A stretch of DNA of 39,839 nt from positions 1-39,839 of the forward strand of contig JBGGMJ010000127.1 in assembly GCA_041288095.1 (NCBI GenBank), in the 5' to 3' direction. Source of the DNA: Myxococcota bacterium (GTDB lineage: Bacteria; Myxococcota; XYA12-FULL-58-9; JALHOP01). A model generated the notes under the pieces. That model saw only the letters and a list, made by a program, of their open reading frames with translations. It had not been told where the DNA came from and did not search any database. Of the stretch, positions 23,814-29,734 are shown in pieces. The stretch's first letter is position 1. Each line of letters opens with the position of its first letter. The translations under genes were made by a program, and so were the position numbers.

Positions 23814-24809
23814 GTGACGAAGGGTCAAGTGCTGGTTTCCGTGCTCATCCCGGCGCGCAACGCCGAAGCGACCGTCGAAGCCGCGGTCGCGAGCATGACG
23901 AGTCAGACCCTGCGCGAGCTCGAGGTCGTCGTCGTCGACGATGGTAGCAGCGATCGAACAGCCGCTATCGTCGCGCGCTTGGCCGCGGCGGACGGGCGGA
24001 TCCGTCTCATCCGTTGTGAGGCGCTGGGGCTTACGCCGGCGTTGAACCGCGCCCTGCAAGAGGCGCGGGCGCCATGGCTTGCCCGCATGGACGCCGACGA
24101 CATTGCCTACCCCGAGCGTTTGCAGCGCCAGATGTGTCTCACCACCGAGGCCGACATCATCGGCTGCGGAGTGCGGATCGTCGGGGCTGGCGAAGGCTAC
24201 GCGCGCTACGCCTCCTGGCTGAACGGTCTCGTCACCCACGAGGCGATGATGCGCGAGCGCTTCGTCGAGAGCCCCCTTGCCCACCCCTCGGTGCTGATGC
24301 GCCGCGCGACGGTGCGGGAGCTCGGCGGCTACCGCGACATGGGTTGGGCCGAGGACTACGACCTCTGGTTGCGCGCGGCTCGAGCCGGCGCGCGCTTCGC
24401 CAAGGCGCCACAGGTGCTGCTCGACTGGATCGATCGCGGCGATCGCACGTCACGGGTCGATGACCGCTATGGCGAGGAAGCCTTTTACGCATGCAAGGCG
24501 CATCACCTGCTGCAAGGGCCTCTTGCGGAGAAGCGATGCACCATCTGGGGCGCCGGTCCTGGCGGCACGCGGCTCGGACGCGCGCTGCGCCGGCAAGGCG
24601 TCACCATCACGCGCTACATCGACATCGACCAAAAGAAGATCGGCCAGATGCGTGGAGGCTCGCCTGTGATCGCCGTAGCGGACATCGATCGCTCGATAGA
24701 CGTCCCGATCCTCGCGGCGGTCGCGGTCCGCGGGGCGCGCGAGCTGGTGCGCGCCGAGCTGGTCTCACGCGGGTTCGTCGAGGCCACCGACTTCTGGTGT
24801 GTCGCGTAG
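23814..24809 (+). CDS. Glycosyltransferase family 2 with C-terminal Rossmann-like segment
   Basis: VSVLIPARN, VVDDGSSD, ARMDADD, AEDYDLWLR, TIWGAGPGG. AGGAG precedes GTG 23814. Confidence 0.88.
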   Translation: MTKGQVLVSVLIPARNAEATVEAAVASMTSQTLRELEVVVVDDGSSDRTAAIVARLAAADGRIRLIRCEALGLTPALNRALQEARAPWLARMDADDIAYPERLQRQMCLTTEADIIGCGVRIVGAGEGYARYASWLNGLVTHEAMMRERFVESPLAHPSVLMRRATVRELGGYRDMGWAEDYDLWLRAARAGARFAKAPQVLLDWIDRGDRTSRVDDRYGEEAFYACKAHHLLQGPLAEKRCTIWGAGPGGTRLGRALRRQGVTITRYIDIDQKKIGQMRGGSPVIAVADIDRSIDVPILAAVAVRGARELVRAELVSRGFVEATDFWCVA

Positions 24810-25997
24810 GGCGCGAGAGAGCGCCTCGTAGTCCGGGCGGTCGTTGTAGAGCTGCGCCGATACACGGAACCAGCGGCGCTCGGGCGACGGCCACGCGAAA
24901 ATCGGCACCTCGATGGCGTGCTCCGCGAAGAGCTTGGCGCCGAGCGGGTCGAAGCGCGACGCGGGCTGCTCACTCGCGGCGGCAAGATGCTCGGGCAGGG
25001 GCAAGGTCACCAGCGCGCCGACCATGCTCTCGGGCACCGGAGGCGTGAGACTCAGCGTCTCGCAGAGATGAGCGCGTGCCGCGAGCGCCATCGCATGGTT
25101 ACGGGCGCGCAACTCCGGCCAGCCGCCGGGGAGCAAGCTCGCCATCGTCTCGATGGCCTTGGGGATGCACAAGAAGCCGGTGCAGTCGTAGGTGCCGGGC
25201 CAGTCGTGGTCCCGACGAAAACCCGAGGTGCCGGGGAAGCCGCGAGCGATGACCAGCGGCTGAAAGCCCTTCTGCCGATCCGGGCGCACGTGGACGAACG
25301 CCGTCCCCTTCGGACTGCATAACCACTTATGCAAGTTGCCGACGTAGTAAGCCGCGCCGATCGCGTTCACGTCGAGCTCGAGCATGCCGGTCGCGTGCGC
25401 ACCGTCCACGAGGACGTCGATGCCCCGCGCCTCGAGCTTGCGGACGAGCTTCTCCACCGGCATGACGACGCCGGTCGGGCTGCTGACGTGATCGATGAGC
25501 ACGAGCCGCGTTTGCGAGCTGGTCGCGTCGACGATTCGCTCGATGACGGCGTCGCTATCGCGGAGAGGCAGCGGCACATCGGCGACCACGAGCCTGAGAT
25601 CCTGGCGTTCCGCGAGGTGCTCGAGCGCCATGCGGCACGAGGGGTAGTCGTGGTTGGTGGTGACGATCTCGTCCCCGGGCTCGAGATCGAGGTTCTTCAG
25701 CACGAGATTGACGCCGGTCGTGGCGTTGGTGACGAACGCAAGATCGTCCGCGCCGGCGTTGACGAAGCTCCCGAGCGCCTGACGCGCGCGCTCGAGCTCG
25801 GGGCCGACGTAGTGCAGGAAAAACTGCGACGGCTCGCGCTCCATGCGGGCGCGCAGCTCGTTCTGATGCTCCAAGACGGCGCGCGGCGTCGCCCCGAAAG
25901 CCCCATGATTGAGGTAGCGGACCTTCGGATCCAGCATCCAGAAGTCGCGCAATTTGGGCATTGACACAGGCCAAACCGGCTCAGAGGTCATTTTCAT
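24765..25997 (-). CDS. PLP-dependent class V aminotransferase (isopenicillin N epimerase / cysteine desulfhydrase-like)
   Basis: YLNHGAFGA, NATTGVN, LVDGAH, GNLHKWLCSPKG (PLP lysine), RVSAQLYN. Start may be ATG 25961. Confidence 0.85.
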   Translation of the reverse strand: MKMTSEPVWPVSMPKLRDFWMLDPKVRYLNHGAFGATPRAVLEHQNELRARMEREPSQFFLHYVGPELERARQALGSFVNAGADDLAFVTNATTGVNLVLKNLDLEPGDEIVTTNHDYPSCRMALEHLAERQDLRLVVADVPLPLRDSDAVIERIVDATSSQTRLVLIDHVSSPTGVVMPVEKLVRKLEARGIDVLVDGAHATGMLELDVNAIGAAYYVGNLHKWLCSPKGTAFVHVRPDRQKGFQPLVIARGFPGTSGFRRDHDWPGTYDCTGFLCIPKAIETMASLLPGGWPELRARNHAMALAARAHLCETLSLTPPVPESMVGALVTLPLPEHLAAASEQPASRFDPLGAKLFAEHAIEVPIFAWPSPERRWFRVSAQLYNDRPDYEALSRALRDTPEVGGLDEPA

Positions 25998-26014
25998 CTC
26001 CGCGCGAATCGCTC

Positions 26015-26042
26015 TTGCGCTCCGGCCGTCAATGCCTAGAAT
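26015..26042 (+). promoter_or_regulatory. Putative sigma70-type promoter of the histone gene
   Basis: TTGCGC-N16-TAGAAT, with AGGAG RBS at 26064-26068. Confidence 0.45.
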
Positions 26043-26077
26043 CGCCCGCGCTGTACCACTTTCAGGAGATTTGAACG

Positions 26078-26272
26078 ATGGCCGAGCAGAAGAAAGAGCG
26101 TGAAGTCGTGGTCGTGGGCTCGAAGCTCAAGGACGCCGTGAAGGCCGCTGGTTGCCAGAGCTCGGGCGACTTGGTCGAGGCAGTTTCGGAGAAGGTCCAC
26201 GACATGATCATCGCGGCGGTCGAGCGCGCCAAGCAGAATGGCCGCGCCACGGTTCGTCCTTACGACCTCTAA
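26078..26272 (+). CDS. Bacterial histone-fold protein (singlet, Bd0055/HLp-like)
   Basis: 64 aa: VVVGSKLKDAVK (alpha1), SSGD loop, long alpha2, then RAKQNGRATVRPYDL (RxTxxxxD clamp with truncated alpha3). Good RBS. Confidence 0.85.
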   Translation: MAEQKKEREVVVVGSKLKDAVKAAGCQSSGDLVEAVSEKVHDMIIAAVERAKQNGRATVRPYDL

Positions 26273-26285
26273 TTCGTGTCGGCGC

Positions 26286-26320
26286 CGTCGGGCGTCTCTC
26301 CGTGAGGAGAGGCGCCGACG
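26286..26320 (+). terminator. GC-rich stem-loop downstream of the histone gene
   Basis: CGTCGGGCGTCTCTCC-GTGA-GGAGAGGCGCCGACG (one bulge, one G-U pair, GNRA loop); no U-tract. Confidence 0.5.
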
Positions 26321-26345
26321 AACGTCGGCTAGCAGCAACGCTTAG

Positions 26346-26367
26346 AAGGCCTCATCCGAGGCCTTTT
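26346..26367. terminator. Probable bidirectional intrinsic terminator between convergent genes
   Basis: AAGGCCTC-ATCC-GAGGCCTT followed by TT. Confidence 0.6.
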
Positions 26368-27346
26368 ACGTTTTCGTCCAGTCGATCACGATCTTGCCGA
26401 AGGTGTCGTTTCGCTCGAGGCGCTGATGCGCTTCGCGGATGCCCGCGGGGGCAATGAAGCTGTCGACGACCGGCTTCAACGTGCCGGCCTCGAAGCTGGG
26501 CACGAGGTGTTCCTCCACCGCTCGCGCAAGCCGAACTTTTTCGGCGAGCGGCCGCGTTCTGAGGACAGTGCCGCGCAGGATGATGCGCTTGCTGAGCAGC
26601 CGGCCGAGGTCGAGGTCGACGGTGGTGCCGCCGGTCAGGCCAATGAGCACGTGGCGTCCGCGATCGCGTAGGAGACCGAGAGTCGACGACACGAGCTTGC
26701 CGCCGACCAGGTCGATGACCACGTCGATGCCTTCGGGCGCGAGCTTCTTCACCGCGTCCGGCCAGTCGCTCTCGGTGACCACGCCACCGGTGAGCCCGAG
26801 TGGGCTCGCCTTGACCAGCTTGTCGGCGTTGCGGGACGTGCCGATGACACGAGCGCCGGCTTGCTTCGCGAGCTGCACGGCGGCGGTGCCGACCCCGCTA
26901 CCAACCGCGTGGATGAGTACCGTCTCGCCAGTCTTCAAGGCGCCCTCGTTGAAGAGGCCGTCGTAGGCGGTCATGAATGCTTCGGGTATGGCGGCCGCGT
27001 GCCGCAAGGAGAGGCCGGTCGGCGCGCGCATGACCTCGTCGGCGCCGACGATGACCTGCTCGGCGTATGCACCGCCACCAACGATGCCCATGACACTGTC
27101 ACCGACCCGAAAGGAGGTCTCGGTGCCGACGGCGTCGATGACACCAGCGTACTCGAGCCCGAGGATGTCGGTCGGTGAGCCCTTCGGCGGCGGGTAGTGA
27201 CCACGGCGCTGCAACAGGTCGGCGCGGTTGAGTCCGCTACCGTGGACACGTATGCGCACCTGACCTTCGCTCGGCTCCGGCGTCGGTCGCTCTTCGAGTC
27301 GCAGCACATCGGTGCCCCCCGGCGCGTCGAAGACGATGGCTCGCAT
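26366..27346 (-). CDS. NAD(P)H:quinone oxidoreductase (PIG3/zeta-crystallin MDR family)
   Basis: GLNRADLLQRRGHYPPP, ILGLEYAG, AAIPEAFMTAY, VLIHAVGSGVGTAAVQLA, FGKIV. Confidence 0.9.
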   Translation of the reverse strand: MRAIVFDAPGGTDVLRLEERPTPEPSEGQVRIRVHGSGLNRADLLQRRGHYPPPKGSPTDILGLEYAGVIDAVGTETSFRVGDSVMGIVGGGAYAEQVIVGADEVMRAPTGLSLRHAAAIPEAFMTAYDGLFNEGALKTGETVLIHAVGSGVGTAAVQLAKQAGARVIGTSRNADKLVKASPLGLTGGVVTESDWPDAVKKLAPEGIDVVIDLVGGKLVSSTLGLLRDRGRHVLIGLTGGTTVDLDLGRLLSKRIILRGTVLRTRPLAEKVRLARAVEEHLVPSFEAGTLKPVVDSFIAPAGIREAHQRLERNDTFGKIVIDWTKT

Positions 27347-27347
27347 G

Positions 27348-28169
27348 TCAGGCGCCTATCTGCTGCAGCAGGGCCTGCAGCTGGCCGAAGCCGCGGAGGC
27401 GAAAACCATAGCGTGGATCTTCCGGCCAGGCACCGGCTCCACCGAGCAGCAAGGTCACGCCGTGCTCTTGGCATGCGGGCGCCAGTCGTTCGACCTGGCG
27501 AGCGAGCAGCGAGAGGTCGGTGGAAGTCGCCGACGCCGAGAGCGCCACCATGCGAACACCGCCGGCGCGGACGAAACGCGTGAGCTCCTCGGTAGGCGTG
27601 TTGCGGCCGGCCCAGCGCGGCAGCCAGCCGGCCTCGCGCAGGCAAAGCTCGAGCAACGACAAGCCGAGCGTGTGATCTTCGTTCTCGGCGGTGGCGAGCA
27701 AGCACCGTGGTGCGTCATCGCGGATGGGCAAGGACTCGACCAGCATGGTGAGCCCGCGCTGCAGGACCTCGCTTGCCAGATGCTCCTCCACGACCGTCAA
27801 GCGGCCCTCCGACCACCTTCGGCCCGCGGCCTCGAGCACTTGGCCTATCGCCTCGGCGACGCGCCACCAGCAGCCACGAGCCGCGCGCTCGGTGAGCAAG
27901 GCCGCTTGCACTTCGTAGGCGCCGACATCGTTGGTGAGCAGCGTGAGCCAGCGGTCGATGTGCTCCGGCTGCGCGACGCCGCCCTTCTCTAGTCCGTTAC
28001 GGCGGGCAAACGCCAGGACTGTCGCGCGCGCGAAACGCCGGTGGCCGCCCAGCGTCTTCACACATTCGAGCTCGCCGCTCTGGGTCCAACGTTTGACCGT
28101 CGATGGGCCGACCCCCAAGGTGAGCGCGACCTCGCCGCTGGTCAAAAGCTCCAGGGAATCCTCGCCCAT
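27348..28169 (-). CDS. MerR/excisionase-type HTH + cobalamin-binding regulator (CarH/LitR-like)
   Basis: HTH LTSGEVALTLGVGPSTVKRW..KTLGGHRRF; W-x9-EH (WSEGRLTVVEEH); ExHxxG (EDHTLG); C-terminal LLGG. Confidence 0.85.
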   Translation of the reverse strand: MGEDSLELLTSGEVALTLGVGPSTVKRWTQSGELECVKTLGGHRRFARATVLAFARRNGLEKGGVAQPEHIDRWLTLLTNDVGAYEVQAALLTERAARGCWWRVAEAIGQVLEAAGRRWSEGRLTVVEEHLASEVLQRGLTMLVESLPIRDDAPRCLLATAENEDHTLGLSLLELCLREAGWLPRWAGRNTPTEELTRFVRAGGVRMVALSASATSTDLSLLARQVERLAPACQEHGVTLLLGGAGAWPEDPRYGFRLRGFGQLQALLQQIGA

Positions 28170-28249: not shown

Positions 28250-29734
28250 ATGCGCGTCGTCATTAGCGGTGCCACTGGTTTCCTCGGACGGGCCTTGGTT
28301 TTGCGCTTGCTGCGCGATGGCCATCAGCTCACTGCCCTTGCCCGCTCGCCTCAGGCAGCGGCTTCGCGCCTCGGCGGTGACGTGCGCGTGGTCGACGTCG
28401 GTAATGCCTCGGCGGTGCAAGCCGCGATGGCGGACGCCGAAGCGGTGGTGAATCTCGCGGGCGAGTCGGTCGCGCATCGTTGGACCGCCAAGCGCAAGGC
28501 GGCTTTGCGCGCGAGCCGGATCGACACGACCAAAAACCTCATCGACAGCGCCGAGCGCGCGGGGTCATCGCTCCGCGTTTTCGTTTCGGCGAGCGCCATC
28601 GGCATCTATGGCGATACCGGGGACGATACGGTCGACGAGACAGCCGCTCCAGCGGACGACTTCCTCGCGGCCCTCTGCGGAGAGTGGGAAGCCGCCGCGC
28701 GCGATGCCGAGAAGCTGAGCGCTCGCGTCGCCATCATGCGCTTCGGTGTCGTGCTGGGTGAAGGAGGCGGCGCACTCGCCACCTTGCTGCCGATGTTCAG
28801 GAGCGGCGTCGGCGGCAAGCTGGGAGATGGCCGCCAGTGGTTCTCCTGGGTTCACTTGCTGGACGCCTGCGAAGCCATCGCGCAAGCCCTGACCGACGAC
28901 CGCTATCACGGCGCGATGAACGTGACCGCGCCGACGCCGGTCACCAACGCCGAATTCACCCGCACGCTCGGCGAGATTCTCAGTCGGCCGACGATGCTCA
29001 CGACGCCGAAGATCGCCGTGAAGCTCGCGCTCGGCGAAGCGGCGTCGGCGGTCCTTTCCTCGCAACGCGTCGTCCCGGCGCGCCTCACGCAGCTTGGTTT
29101 CACCTTCGCGTACCCTGAGCTCGACGGTGCTCTGCGGGAGATCACGCACGCCAGCCCCACCGTCACGGTGCGTCCTATAGGAGGCGAGCTTCCAGCCCAT
29201 CCTTACGTCGCGGCGCGCCGACCTACGCATGTGTTATCGCAGCGCACCGTGATCGACGCGCCGCTCACCGAGGTCTTGCCGTTTTTCGCCAAAGCCGAAA
29301 ACCTCGGCGCCATCACACCGCCGGACATGGCGTTCACCATCACCACAGCGGTGCCGCTCACGATGGCCAACGACCTGGTCATCGACTACCGCATCGTCAT
29401 CGGCGGCTTGCCTCTCAAGTGGCGGACCATCATCGAAGAGTGGCGGCCCGGCGAGGGCTTCACCGACGCGCAGCATCGCGGCCCCTACCGGTCGTGGTTC
29501 CACGAGCACCGCTTTCGCGCGGACGGCAACCGCACCATCATGGAGGACCAGGTCTGGTACGCCCTGCCCTTCGGTCCGCTCGGGCGACTGGTGAACGCGC
29601 TGCAGGTGCGCGGGATGCTGCGCCGCATCTTCGAATACCGCGCTACGCGCATCGCGTTACGCTTCGGCGGAGGTCACGCGAAGCAAGCGCGCGCCACCGC
29701 GACGACGCTCTCACCGAGCGCCAGCGTGTCGTAA
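28250..29734 (+). CDS. TIGR01777 (YfcH/SDR39U1-like) NAD-dependent epimerase fused to an SRPBCC domain
   Basis: [41 protein letters not shown]-terminal [24 protein letters not shown]. Confidence 0.88.

Follow-up and report, generated by a model that had tools for sequence, protein, structure and literature searches.

A reading frame of 64 codons, set between two genes of the opposite strand on a contig of the Myxococcota, raises the question of whether this bacterium encodes a true histone, to which structural class such a protein would belong, and what it might do in a cell that also carries classical nucleoid proteins. The window analysed here (39,839 nt, the whole stretch) forms contig 127 in an assembly of 5.85 Mb that comprises 212 contigs and is 90 % complete. 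An earlier note, made from the letters of the window, had read the frame as a stand-alone histone gene with signals of its own, whose product would fall into the short-alpha3 face-to-face (FtF) class. FtF histones in this phylum have already been reported bioinformatically: Schwab et al. (2024, PMC11390915) place those of bacteria predominantly in Spirochaetota, Planctomycetota, Bdellovibrionota and Myxococcota, a statement repeated in PMC12701072, and in this regard the present protein is expected and not surprising. On the experimental side, PMC12701072 names only two bacterial histones as studied, HBb (Bd0055) of Bdellovibrio bacteriovorus and HLp of Leptospira perolatii. The latter (PDB 9QT0, 9QT1, 9QT2; Hu et al. 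2025, PMC12701072) is the first characterised bacterial FtF histone, described there as a tetramer in solution that wraps about 60 bp of DNA and reorganises the nucleoid of E. coli; MNase protection with HLp yields irregular fragments of 35-72 bp. A full-text literature search returned no experimental study of a myxobacterial histone, the results being bioinformatic papers and unrelated reviews, and the supplements of PMC11390915 and PMC12701072 may already list the family.

In a window with 66 % GC there are many overlapping reading frames of similar size, including a 100-aa antisense ORF at 26036..26338, so that the frame could in principle be a chance ORF of GC-rich DNA and no gene at all. 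This explanation is hardly credible. A word-indexed search retrieved 80 homologues at 66-100 % identity, and an exhaustive one 337 representatives at E <= 0.001; a homologue of solved structure is matched as well, and both the ribosome-binding site and the promoter are kept in orthologues. Moreover, when 56 codons were compared with three congeners, synonymous and non-synonymous differences numbered 6/0, 10/2 and 7/1, an excess of synonymous changes in the histone frame that the antisense ORF cannot explain. The histone gene is thus shown to be real and under purifying selection. A hint of transcription, and no more, is given by three metatranscriptomes, each of a different study, in which contigs of 151, 215 and 156 nt match the histone ORF (26069-26283) and nothing else of the query, at 94-97 % identity; these contigs derive from relatives, cannot rank expression and match the stretch of the query that is best conserved anyway. 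Its GC3 (0.815) is not different from that of the neighbouring genes (0.817-0.861), and there is therefore no codon-level mark of high expression.

The features of the locus are collected in Table 1. The ORF encodes exactly the residues given in the earlier note, and the ORF list together with Pfam places both flanking genes on the opposite strand, one divergent and the other convergent. This gene order is kept in three congeners, and the convergent oxidoreductase is also found near the histone gene in two more distant loci; nothing in the neighbouring genes links the aminotransferase or the oxidoreductase functionally to the histone.

Table 1. Features of the histone locus, in positions of the window.
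Feature	Coordinates	Strand	Remarks
Class-V aminotransferase gene	24765..25997	-	Upstream, divergent; Pfam Aminotran_5, E 1.2e-29
Intergenic promoter-leader between aminotransferase and histone genes	25998..26077	+	80 nt; almost invariant within the genus
Sigma-70-type promoter (predicted)	26015..26042	+	-35 TTGCGC 26015-26020, 16-nt spacer, -10 TAGAAT 26037-26042
Shine-Dalgarno AGGAG	26064..26068	+	9 nt 5' of the ATG
Histone ORF	26078..26272	+	ATG start; 64 aa + stop
First downstream hairpin	26278..26329	+	Long GC-rich stem; kept in congeners
Second hairpin with U-rich tail, intrinsic terminator (predicted)	26337..26378	+	Hairpin 26337-26372, core stem 26343-26368
Zinc-type alcohol dehydrogenase / quinone oxidoreductase gene	26366..27346	-	Downstream, convergent; ADH_zinc_N, E 3.2e-25

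The signals for expression were equally borne out, the promoter by comparison. A strict consensus scan of positions 25800-26600 returned no promoter-like site, and it misses the histone promoter because the -35 box matches the consensus at only three of six positions. The 110 nt 5' of the histone start were then compared with those of 11 orthologous loci with a start codon. The window carries the pattern TTGNNN-N16-TANAAT 5' of its histone gene, and so do 10 of these 11 loci (the exception is L007); the pattern agrees across upstream regions that otherwise cannot be aligned. These 11 sites are the sole matches in 253,716 nt (both strands of all these sequences), a count that illustrates and does not test the motif, since the pattern was picked after the sequences had been viewed. 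From the end of the -10 box to the histone ATG the distance is 32-59 nt among these sites, and for the window transcription is predicted to start near 26049-26051. All 11 orthologous loci carry GGAG within 20 nt 5' of the start, in line with the ribosome-binding site that had been claimed for the window.

Both of the hairpins described downstream were recovered. The 116 nt after the histone stop (folded as 26270-26385) reach -59 kcal/mol with z = -5.0, and none of 200 shuffles was as stable. A terminator scan found one site, the second hairpin, against 0.8 expected in shuffles, so that the scan alone is not above chance; in several histone orthologues, too, the gene ends with a GC hairpin and a run of T behind it. 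The core stem of the second hairpin overlaps the stop codon of the convergent oxidoreductase gene. Altogether, the histone gene is confirmed as a monocistronic unit with its own signals.

The product is a protein of 6.9 kDa with a single fold, and the question of its kind was addressed by sequence and by structure. Against the sequences of solved structures, HLp (9qt0) came out best (E 2.8e-10, 43 bits, about 40 % identity over the 60 residues 4-63), followed by HBb (8cmp, 8fvx; E 5.6e-05) and by the archaeal FtF histone HTkC of Thermococcus kodakarensis (9f2c; E 0.4). A family profile built from 35 relatives, chosen from the 80 homologues to span the identity range, kept this order and gave E 1.7e-18 for HLp (69.5 bits), 1.1e-09 for HBb (41.3 bits) and 3.6e-07 for HTkC (33.2 bits). 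The AlphaFold2 monomer (pLDDT 78.9) has the helix-loop-helix layout of histones, with helices at residues 14-23 (alpha1), 29-53 (alpha2) and 61-63 (alpha3): in this model alpha2 has 25 residues and alpha3 only three, the chain ending at residue 64, while loop 1 contains Q27-S28-S29-G30-D31 and loop 2 contains R56-x-T58. Foldseek on the monomer placed HLp first (probability 1.00, E 1.7e-03, TM 0.53/0.60), then HBb, HTkC and HMfA/B, so that its top rows are all histones, with no match at E <= 0.001 for this 64-residue monomer; VIA likewise listed histones in its top rows, with no chain at Z >= 5 and a best Z of 4.1, a monomer of 64 residues being too small for a strong score. These structural matches are consistent with a histone fold but weak, and it is the sequence evidence that carries the assignment.

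The profile libraries speak less clearly. Of the two Pfam families that the earlier note had named for a check of the fold, DUF1931 (PF09123) is the best match but lies marginally above its cut-off (22.0 against 21.8 bits), over 33 residues at model positions 21-53 of 138, whereas CBFD_NFYB_HMF (PF00808) stays under its own (16.1 against 21.4 bits); no NCBIfam family matches the protein. A nucleosomal histone of the archaeal or eukaryotic type (PF00808) was accordingly rejected, the score being below the cut-off and alpha3 truncated, and so was a DUF1931 pseudodimer, given one fold of 64 aa that matches so small a part of the model. The claim of a histone fold with a short alpha3 was upheld by the sequence matches and by the predicted monomer. 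In public annotation, relatives of the protein are called 'histone H3/H4' in 7 of 80 rows, and one close relative is entered as 'DUF1931 family protein'.

Membership in the FtF class was examined residue by residue, with the numbering of the query equal to that of HLp plus one (relative to the PDB chain, the residue numbers of the HLp paper are shifted by two). In passages of Schwab et al. (2024, PMC11390915), the alpha3-truncated histones are characterised by an alpha3 of 3-4 residues, an alpha2 shorter than in nucleosomal histones and an RxTxxxxD motif. The query has this motif as R56-A-T58-V-R-P-Y-D63, which includes the equivalent of the RD clamp of HLp (R55-D62, here R56-D63). The residues R49, N53 and R55 of HLp, called conserved among tetrameric bacterial FtF histones in PMC12701072, correspond to R50, N54 and R56, and all seven hydrophobic positions of the HLp dimer core are hydrophobic in the query. 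Among the nine DNA contacts of HLp (A13, S14, K15, K17, K21, T27, G29, T56, T57), six recur unchanged in the query, two have conservative replacements (G14, S28) and T56 is lost (here A57); the alpha1 lysines K16, K18 and K22 align with the contacts K15, K17 and K21. In the 35-sequence alignment R50, N54, R56, T58, D63, K16 and K18 are invariant (K22 is present in the query), and in 189 histone domains from the 149 best representatives R50, N54, R56, T58 and D63 are found 170, 169, 180, 161 and 178 times. The claim of the earlier note that the protein resembles the short-alpha3 face-to-face class agrees with this picture, in which HLp is the closest relative and the motif, the three-residue alpha3 and the R50/N54/R56 triad are all present. 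In sequence the query fits everything by which the FtF class is recognised, and the ring tetramer that defines this class is proposed for it.

The charge of the protein deserves a comment. It is nearly neutral, with pI 7.9, a net charge of +0.6 and 11 K+R against 10 D+E, and its N-terminal tail MAEQKKERE has a net charge of zero, where many relatives have lysine-rich tails. The aligned stretch of HLp contains 11 K+R against 9 D+E and reaches only about +2, so that a near-neutral charge does not disqualify the query.

Taking this evidence together, we consider it likely that the protein is an alpha3-truncated bacterial FtF histone, an orthologue in kind of Leptospira HLp, that acts in the following manner. 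Two chains would form a histone-fold handshake dimer through the hydrophobic residues of alpha1 and alpha2, and two such dimers would close into a ring tetramer in which R50, N54 and R56 contact the C-terminal Y62-D63-L64 turn of the opposite dimer, a tetramer that residue conservation predicts. The rim of the ring may bind DNA irrespective of sequence through S15, K16, K18 and K22 at the start of alpha1, S28 and G30 in loop 1 and T58 in loop 2, and about 60 bp would be wrapped, as in HLp. The gene would be transcribed alone from the conserved sigma-70-type promoter up to the intrinsic terminator, and the product would be an abundant nucleoid-associated protein next to HU/IHF. That the protein forms tetramers, wraps DNA, is abundant and serves in the nucleoid is thus proposed by analogy with HLp. 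Histone-based nucleoid organisation, which the earlier note had suggested, is likewise an inference, and with four HU/IHF genes in the genome the histone is not necessarily the chief organiser.

Two other explanations accept the histone fold and differ in what the protein does with it. It might resemble HBb/Bd0055, a histone that remains a dimer and in this form bends DNA in the manner of HU/IHF, with no wrapping tetramer. HBb is indeed the second-best solved match both by sequence and by profile, its alpha3 is likewise truncated and it has the RD clamp too, and three of the six interface residues of HLp are substituted in the query (S52 to Q53, T61 to Y62 and F63 to L64). On the other hand, the profile score to HLp exceeds that to HBb by 28 bits, and the decisive columns differ, since HBb carries S and D where the query has R50 and N54; lacking these two dimer-dimer residues of FtF histones is, according to Schwab et al. 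(PMC11390915), the sequence mark of the 'bacterial dimers', and both are kept throughout the aligned relatives. We regard a dimeric histone as unlikely. The protein could also be a histone-fold protein without a packaging role, a specific regulator or a protein-protein adaptor, comparable to the DUF1931 pseudodimers that lack DNA-binding residues. The first place of DUF1931 among the Pfam matches, the net charge near zero and the HU/IHF genes of the same genome would all be in line with such a role, which we nevertheless hold to be quite improbable: the DUF1931 model describes two folds and the query is a singlet that covers a fraction of it, eight of the nine DNA-contact positions of HLp are identical or conservative with two of the lysines invariant, and a gene that stands alone behind a strong, conserved promoter is in keeping with an abundant structural protein.

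The preferred reading, that of an HLp-like FtF histone, can be set against the known systems in some detail. HLp and its L. interrogans homologue are close in length (63 aa against 64 aa in the query), and HLp shares with the query the truncated alpha3, the RD clamp, the R/N/R residues of the tetramer, the SGD of loop 1, the TVRP..D ending and a single histone gene in the genome. Unlike HLp, the query has a neutral tail; its neighbours are an aminotransferase and an oxidoreductase where the HLp gene has SMC and methionine aminopeptidase, and it coexists with four HU/IHF genes, whereas Leptospira is reported in PMC12701072 to be without any. HBb/Bd0055 (PDB 8CMP, 8FVX, 9EZZ; PMC10627809, PMC11317129) is also an alpha3-truncated singlet with the RD clamp and the alpha1 lysines, and it coexists with HU in its host, as described in PMC12701072; it differs from the query in the columns mentioned above and stays a dimer. 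HTkC (PDB 9F2C; PMC11390915) belongs to the FtF class with a ring tetramer predicted, and it is found by Foldseek with a probability of 0.98, but it comes from an archaeal cluster, has no tail and is more distant (27 % identity in Foldseek). The DUF1931 pseudodimers (Thermus 1WWI and Aquifex 1R4V, as listed in PMC12701072) have the histone fold, as the Pfam cross-match reflects, but contain two folds per chain (about 138 positions) and are described as lacking the DNA-binding residues, which the single fold of the query keeps.

The histone gene is single-copy in the assembly: no further histone gene was found there, the other matches being weak (E 0.75 and E 0.169), while four genes of the HU/IHF family score above the Pfam cut-off. 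Of 41 relatives, 25 have a homologue, as do 12 of the 14 near-complete genomes from the order and 80 of the 301 genomes sampled from the phylum (74 of 292 of high quality; 53 of 126 genera), with a patchy distribution across families. The presence of the histone across the order is thereby shown. A set of 43 loci, selected by two peptide patterns that would bias a tree, divides by identity into 12 at 61-98 %, from records of metagenome-assembled genomes labelled Myxococcota, Polyangia, Myxococcales, Deltaproteobacteria or 'uncultured Bdellovibrionales', and 31 at 38-54 %, which are mostly from DPANN archaea, Planctomycetota and Saccharibacteria. The names on the closest records agree with a lineage within the Myxococcota. 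One locus of the Myxococcales (L016, 5001-5129) matches residues 22-64 only, with no in-frame start upstream, and may represent a truncated or frameshifted histone gene.

Some of the related proteins have other architectures. Two histone folds per chain occur in 40 of the 149 best representatives (P0081, P0083, P0084, P0086, P0088, P0100 and others), and 13 of these 40 start with a hydrophobic N-terminus that resembles a signal peptide by a crude pattern, which suggests that tandem histone-fold proteins may be exported; the words 'signal peptide', 'secreted' and 'periplasm' are absent from the main text of PMC11390915. Weaker second histone matches in the genomes G112, G015 and G024 were set aside as ZZ-finger histone fusions, which have no bearing on the question. 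These fusions (L052 2008-2772 on the minus strand, L053 1563-2156 and L054 703-2238 on the plus strand) join an N-terminal cysteine-rich ZZ-type zinc finger to one histone fold, or to two in L052, and belong to the known category of the 'ZZ histone'; none was found in the assembly to which the window belongs.

A distinct aspect of the locus is the conservation of the 80-nt intergenic promoter-leader, which is 100, 98.8 and 96.3 % identical to that of the congeners L010, L005 and L006, against an identity of 73-82 % in the flanking genes and of 89-96 % in the histone ORF of the same congeners. The 28-nt promoter and the ribosome-binding site account for only about a third of this region. The leader and start region of the histone mRNA are less structured than shuffles (z = +1.41), which fits the expectation for an efficiently translated mRNA, and an RNA element behind the invariant region was rejected because the leader has no stable fold. 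Rfam matched 25850-26500 only with Mcr7, whose 17 bits, where the gathering score is 380, amount to chance. The remaining conservation possibly reflects a promoter of the divergent aminotransferase gene or an operator. As to this neighbour, its first ATG (25997) is not kept in L010 and L005, where CAT is replaced by CGT on the plus strand; the one at 25991, two codons into the ORF, is kept, and the aminotransferase therefore probably starts there.

On the other side of the histone gene lies a regulator of the CarH/LitR-like type (MerR/HTH_17 plus B12-binding; 27348-28169, minus strand), placed between the quinone oxidoreductase and a divergent TIGR01777-family oxidoreductase fusion (28250-29734, plus strand); the histone gene, with its own signals, stands just outside this group.

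The features that are particular to this histone are its short neutral tail, the four coexisting HU/IHF genes and the unusually invariant promoter-leader. A wider proposal, which we put forward as rather doubtful, is that the FtF histone serves this uncultured order as a core chromatin protein, inherited vertically and expressed at a high level, beside HU/IHF, and that the 80-nt promoter-leader carries in addition a control element, for instance for autoregulation or for coupling to growth phase or development. If this were true, histone dosage would come under regulation in a bacterial lineage noted for its developmental cycles. A single-copy FtF histone beside four HU/IHF genes is the opposite of the situation in Leptospira, where the histone stands alone, and makes this protein suited to asking how a wrapping histone and the classical nucleoid proteins share a bacterial chromosome. 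For such work the conserved promoter TTGNNN-16-TANAAT offers a handle for expression studies, and some complete genomes of the phylum contain homologues, a sign that there are cultured models.
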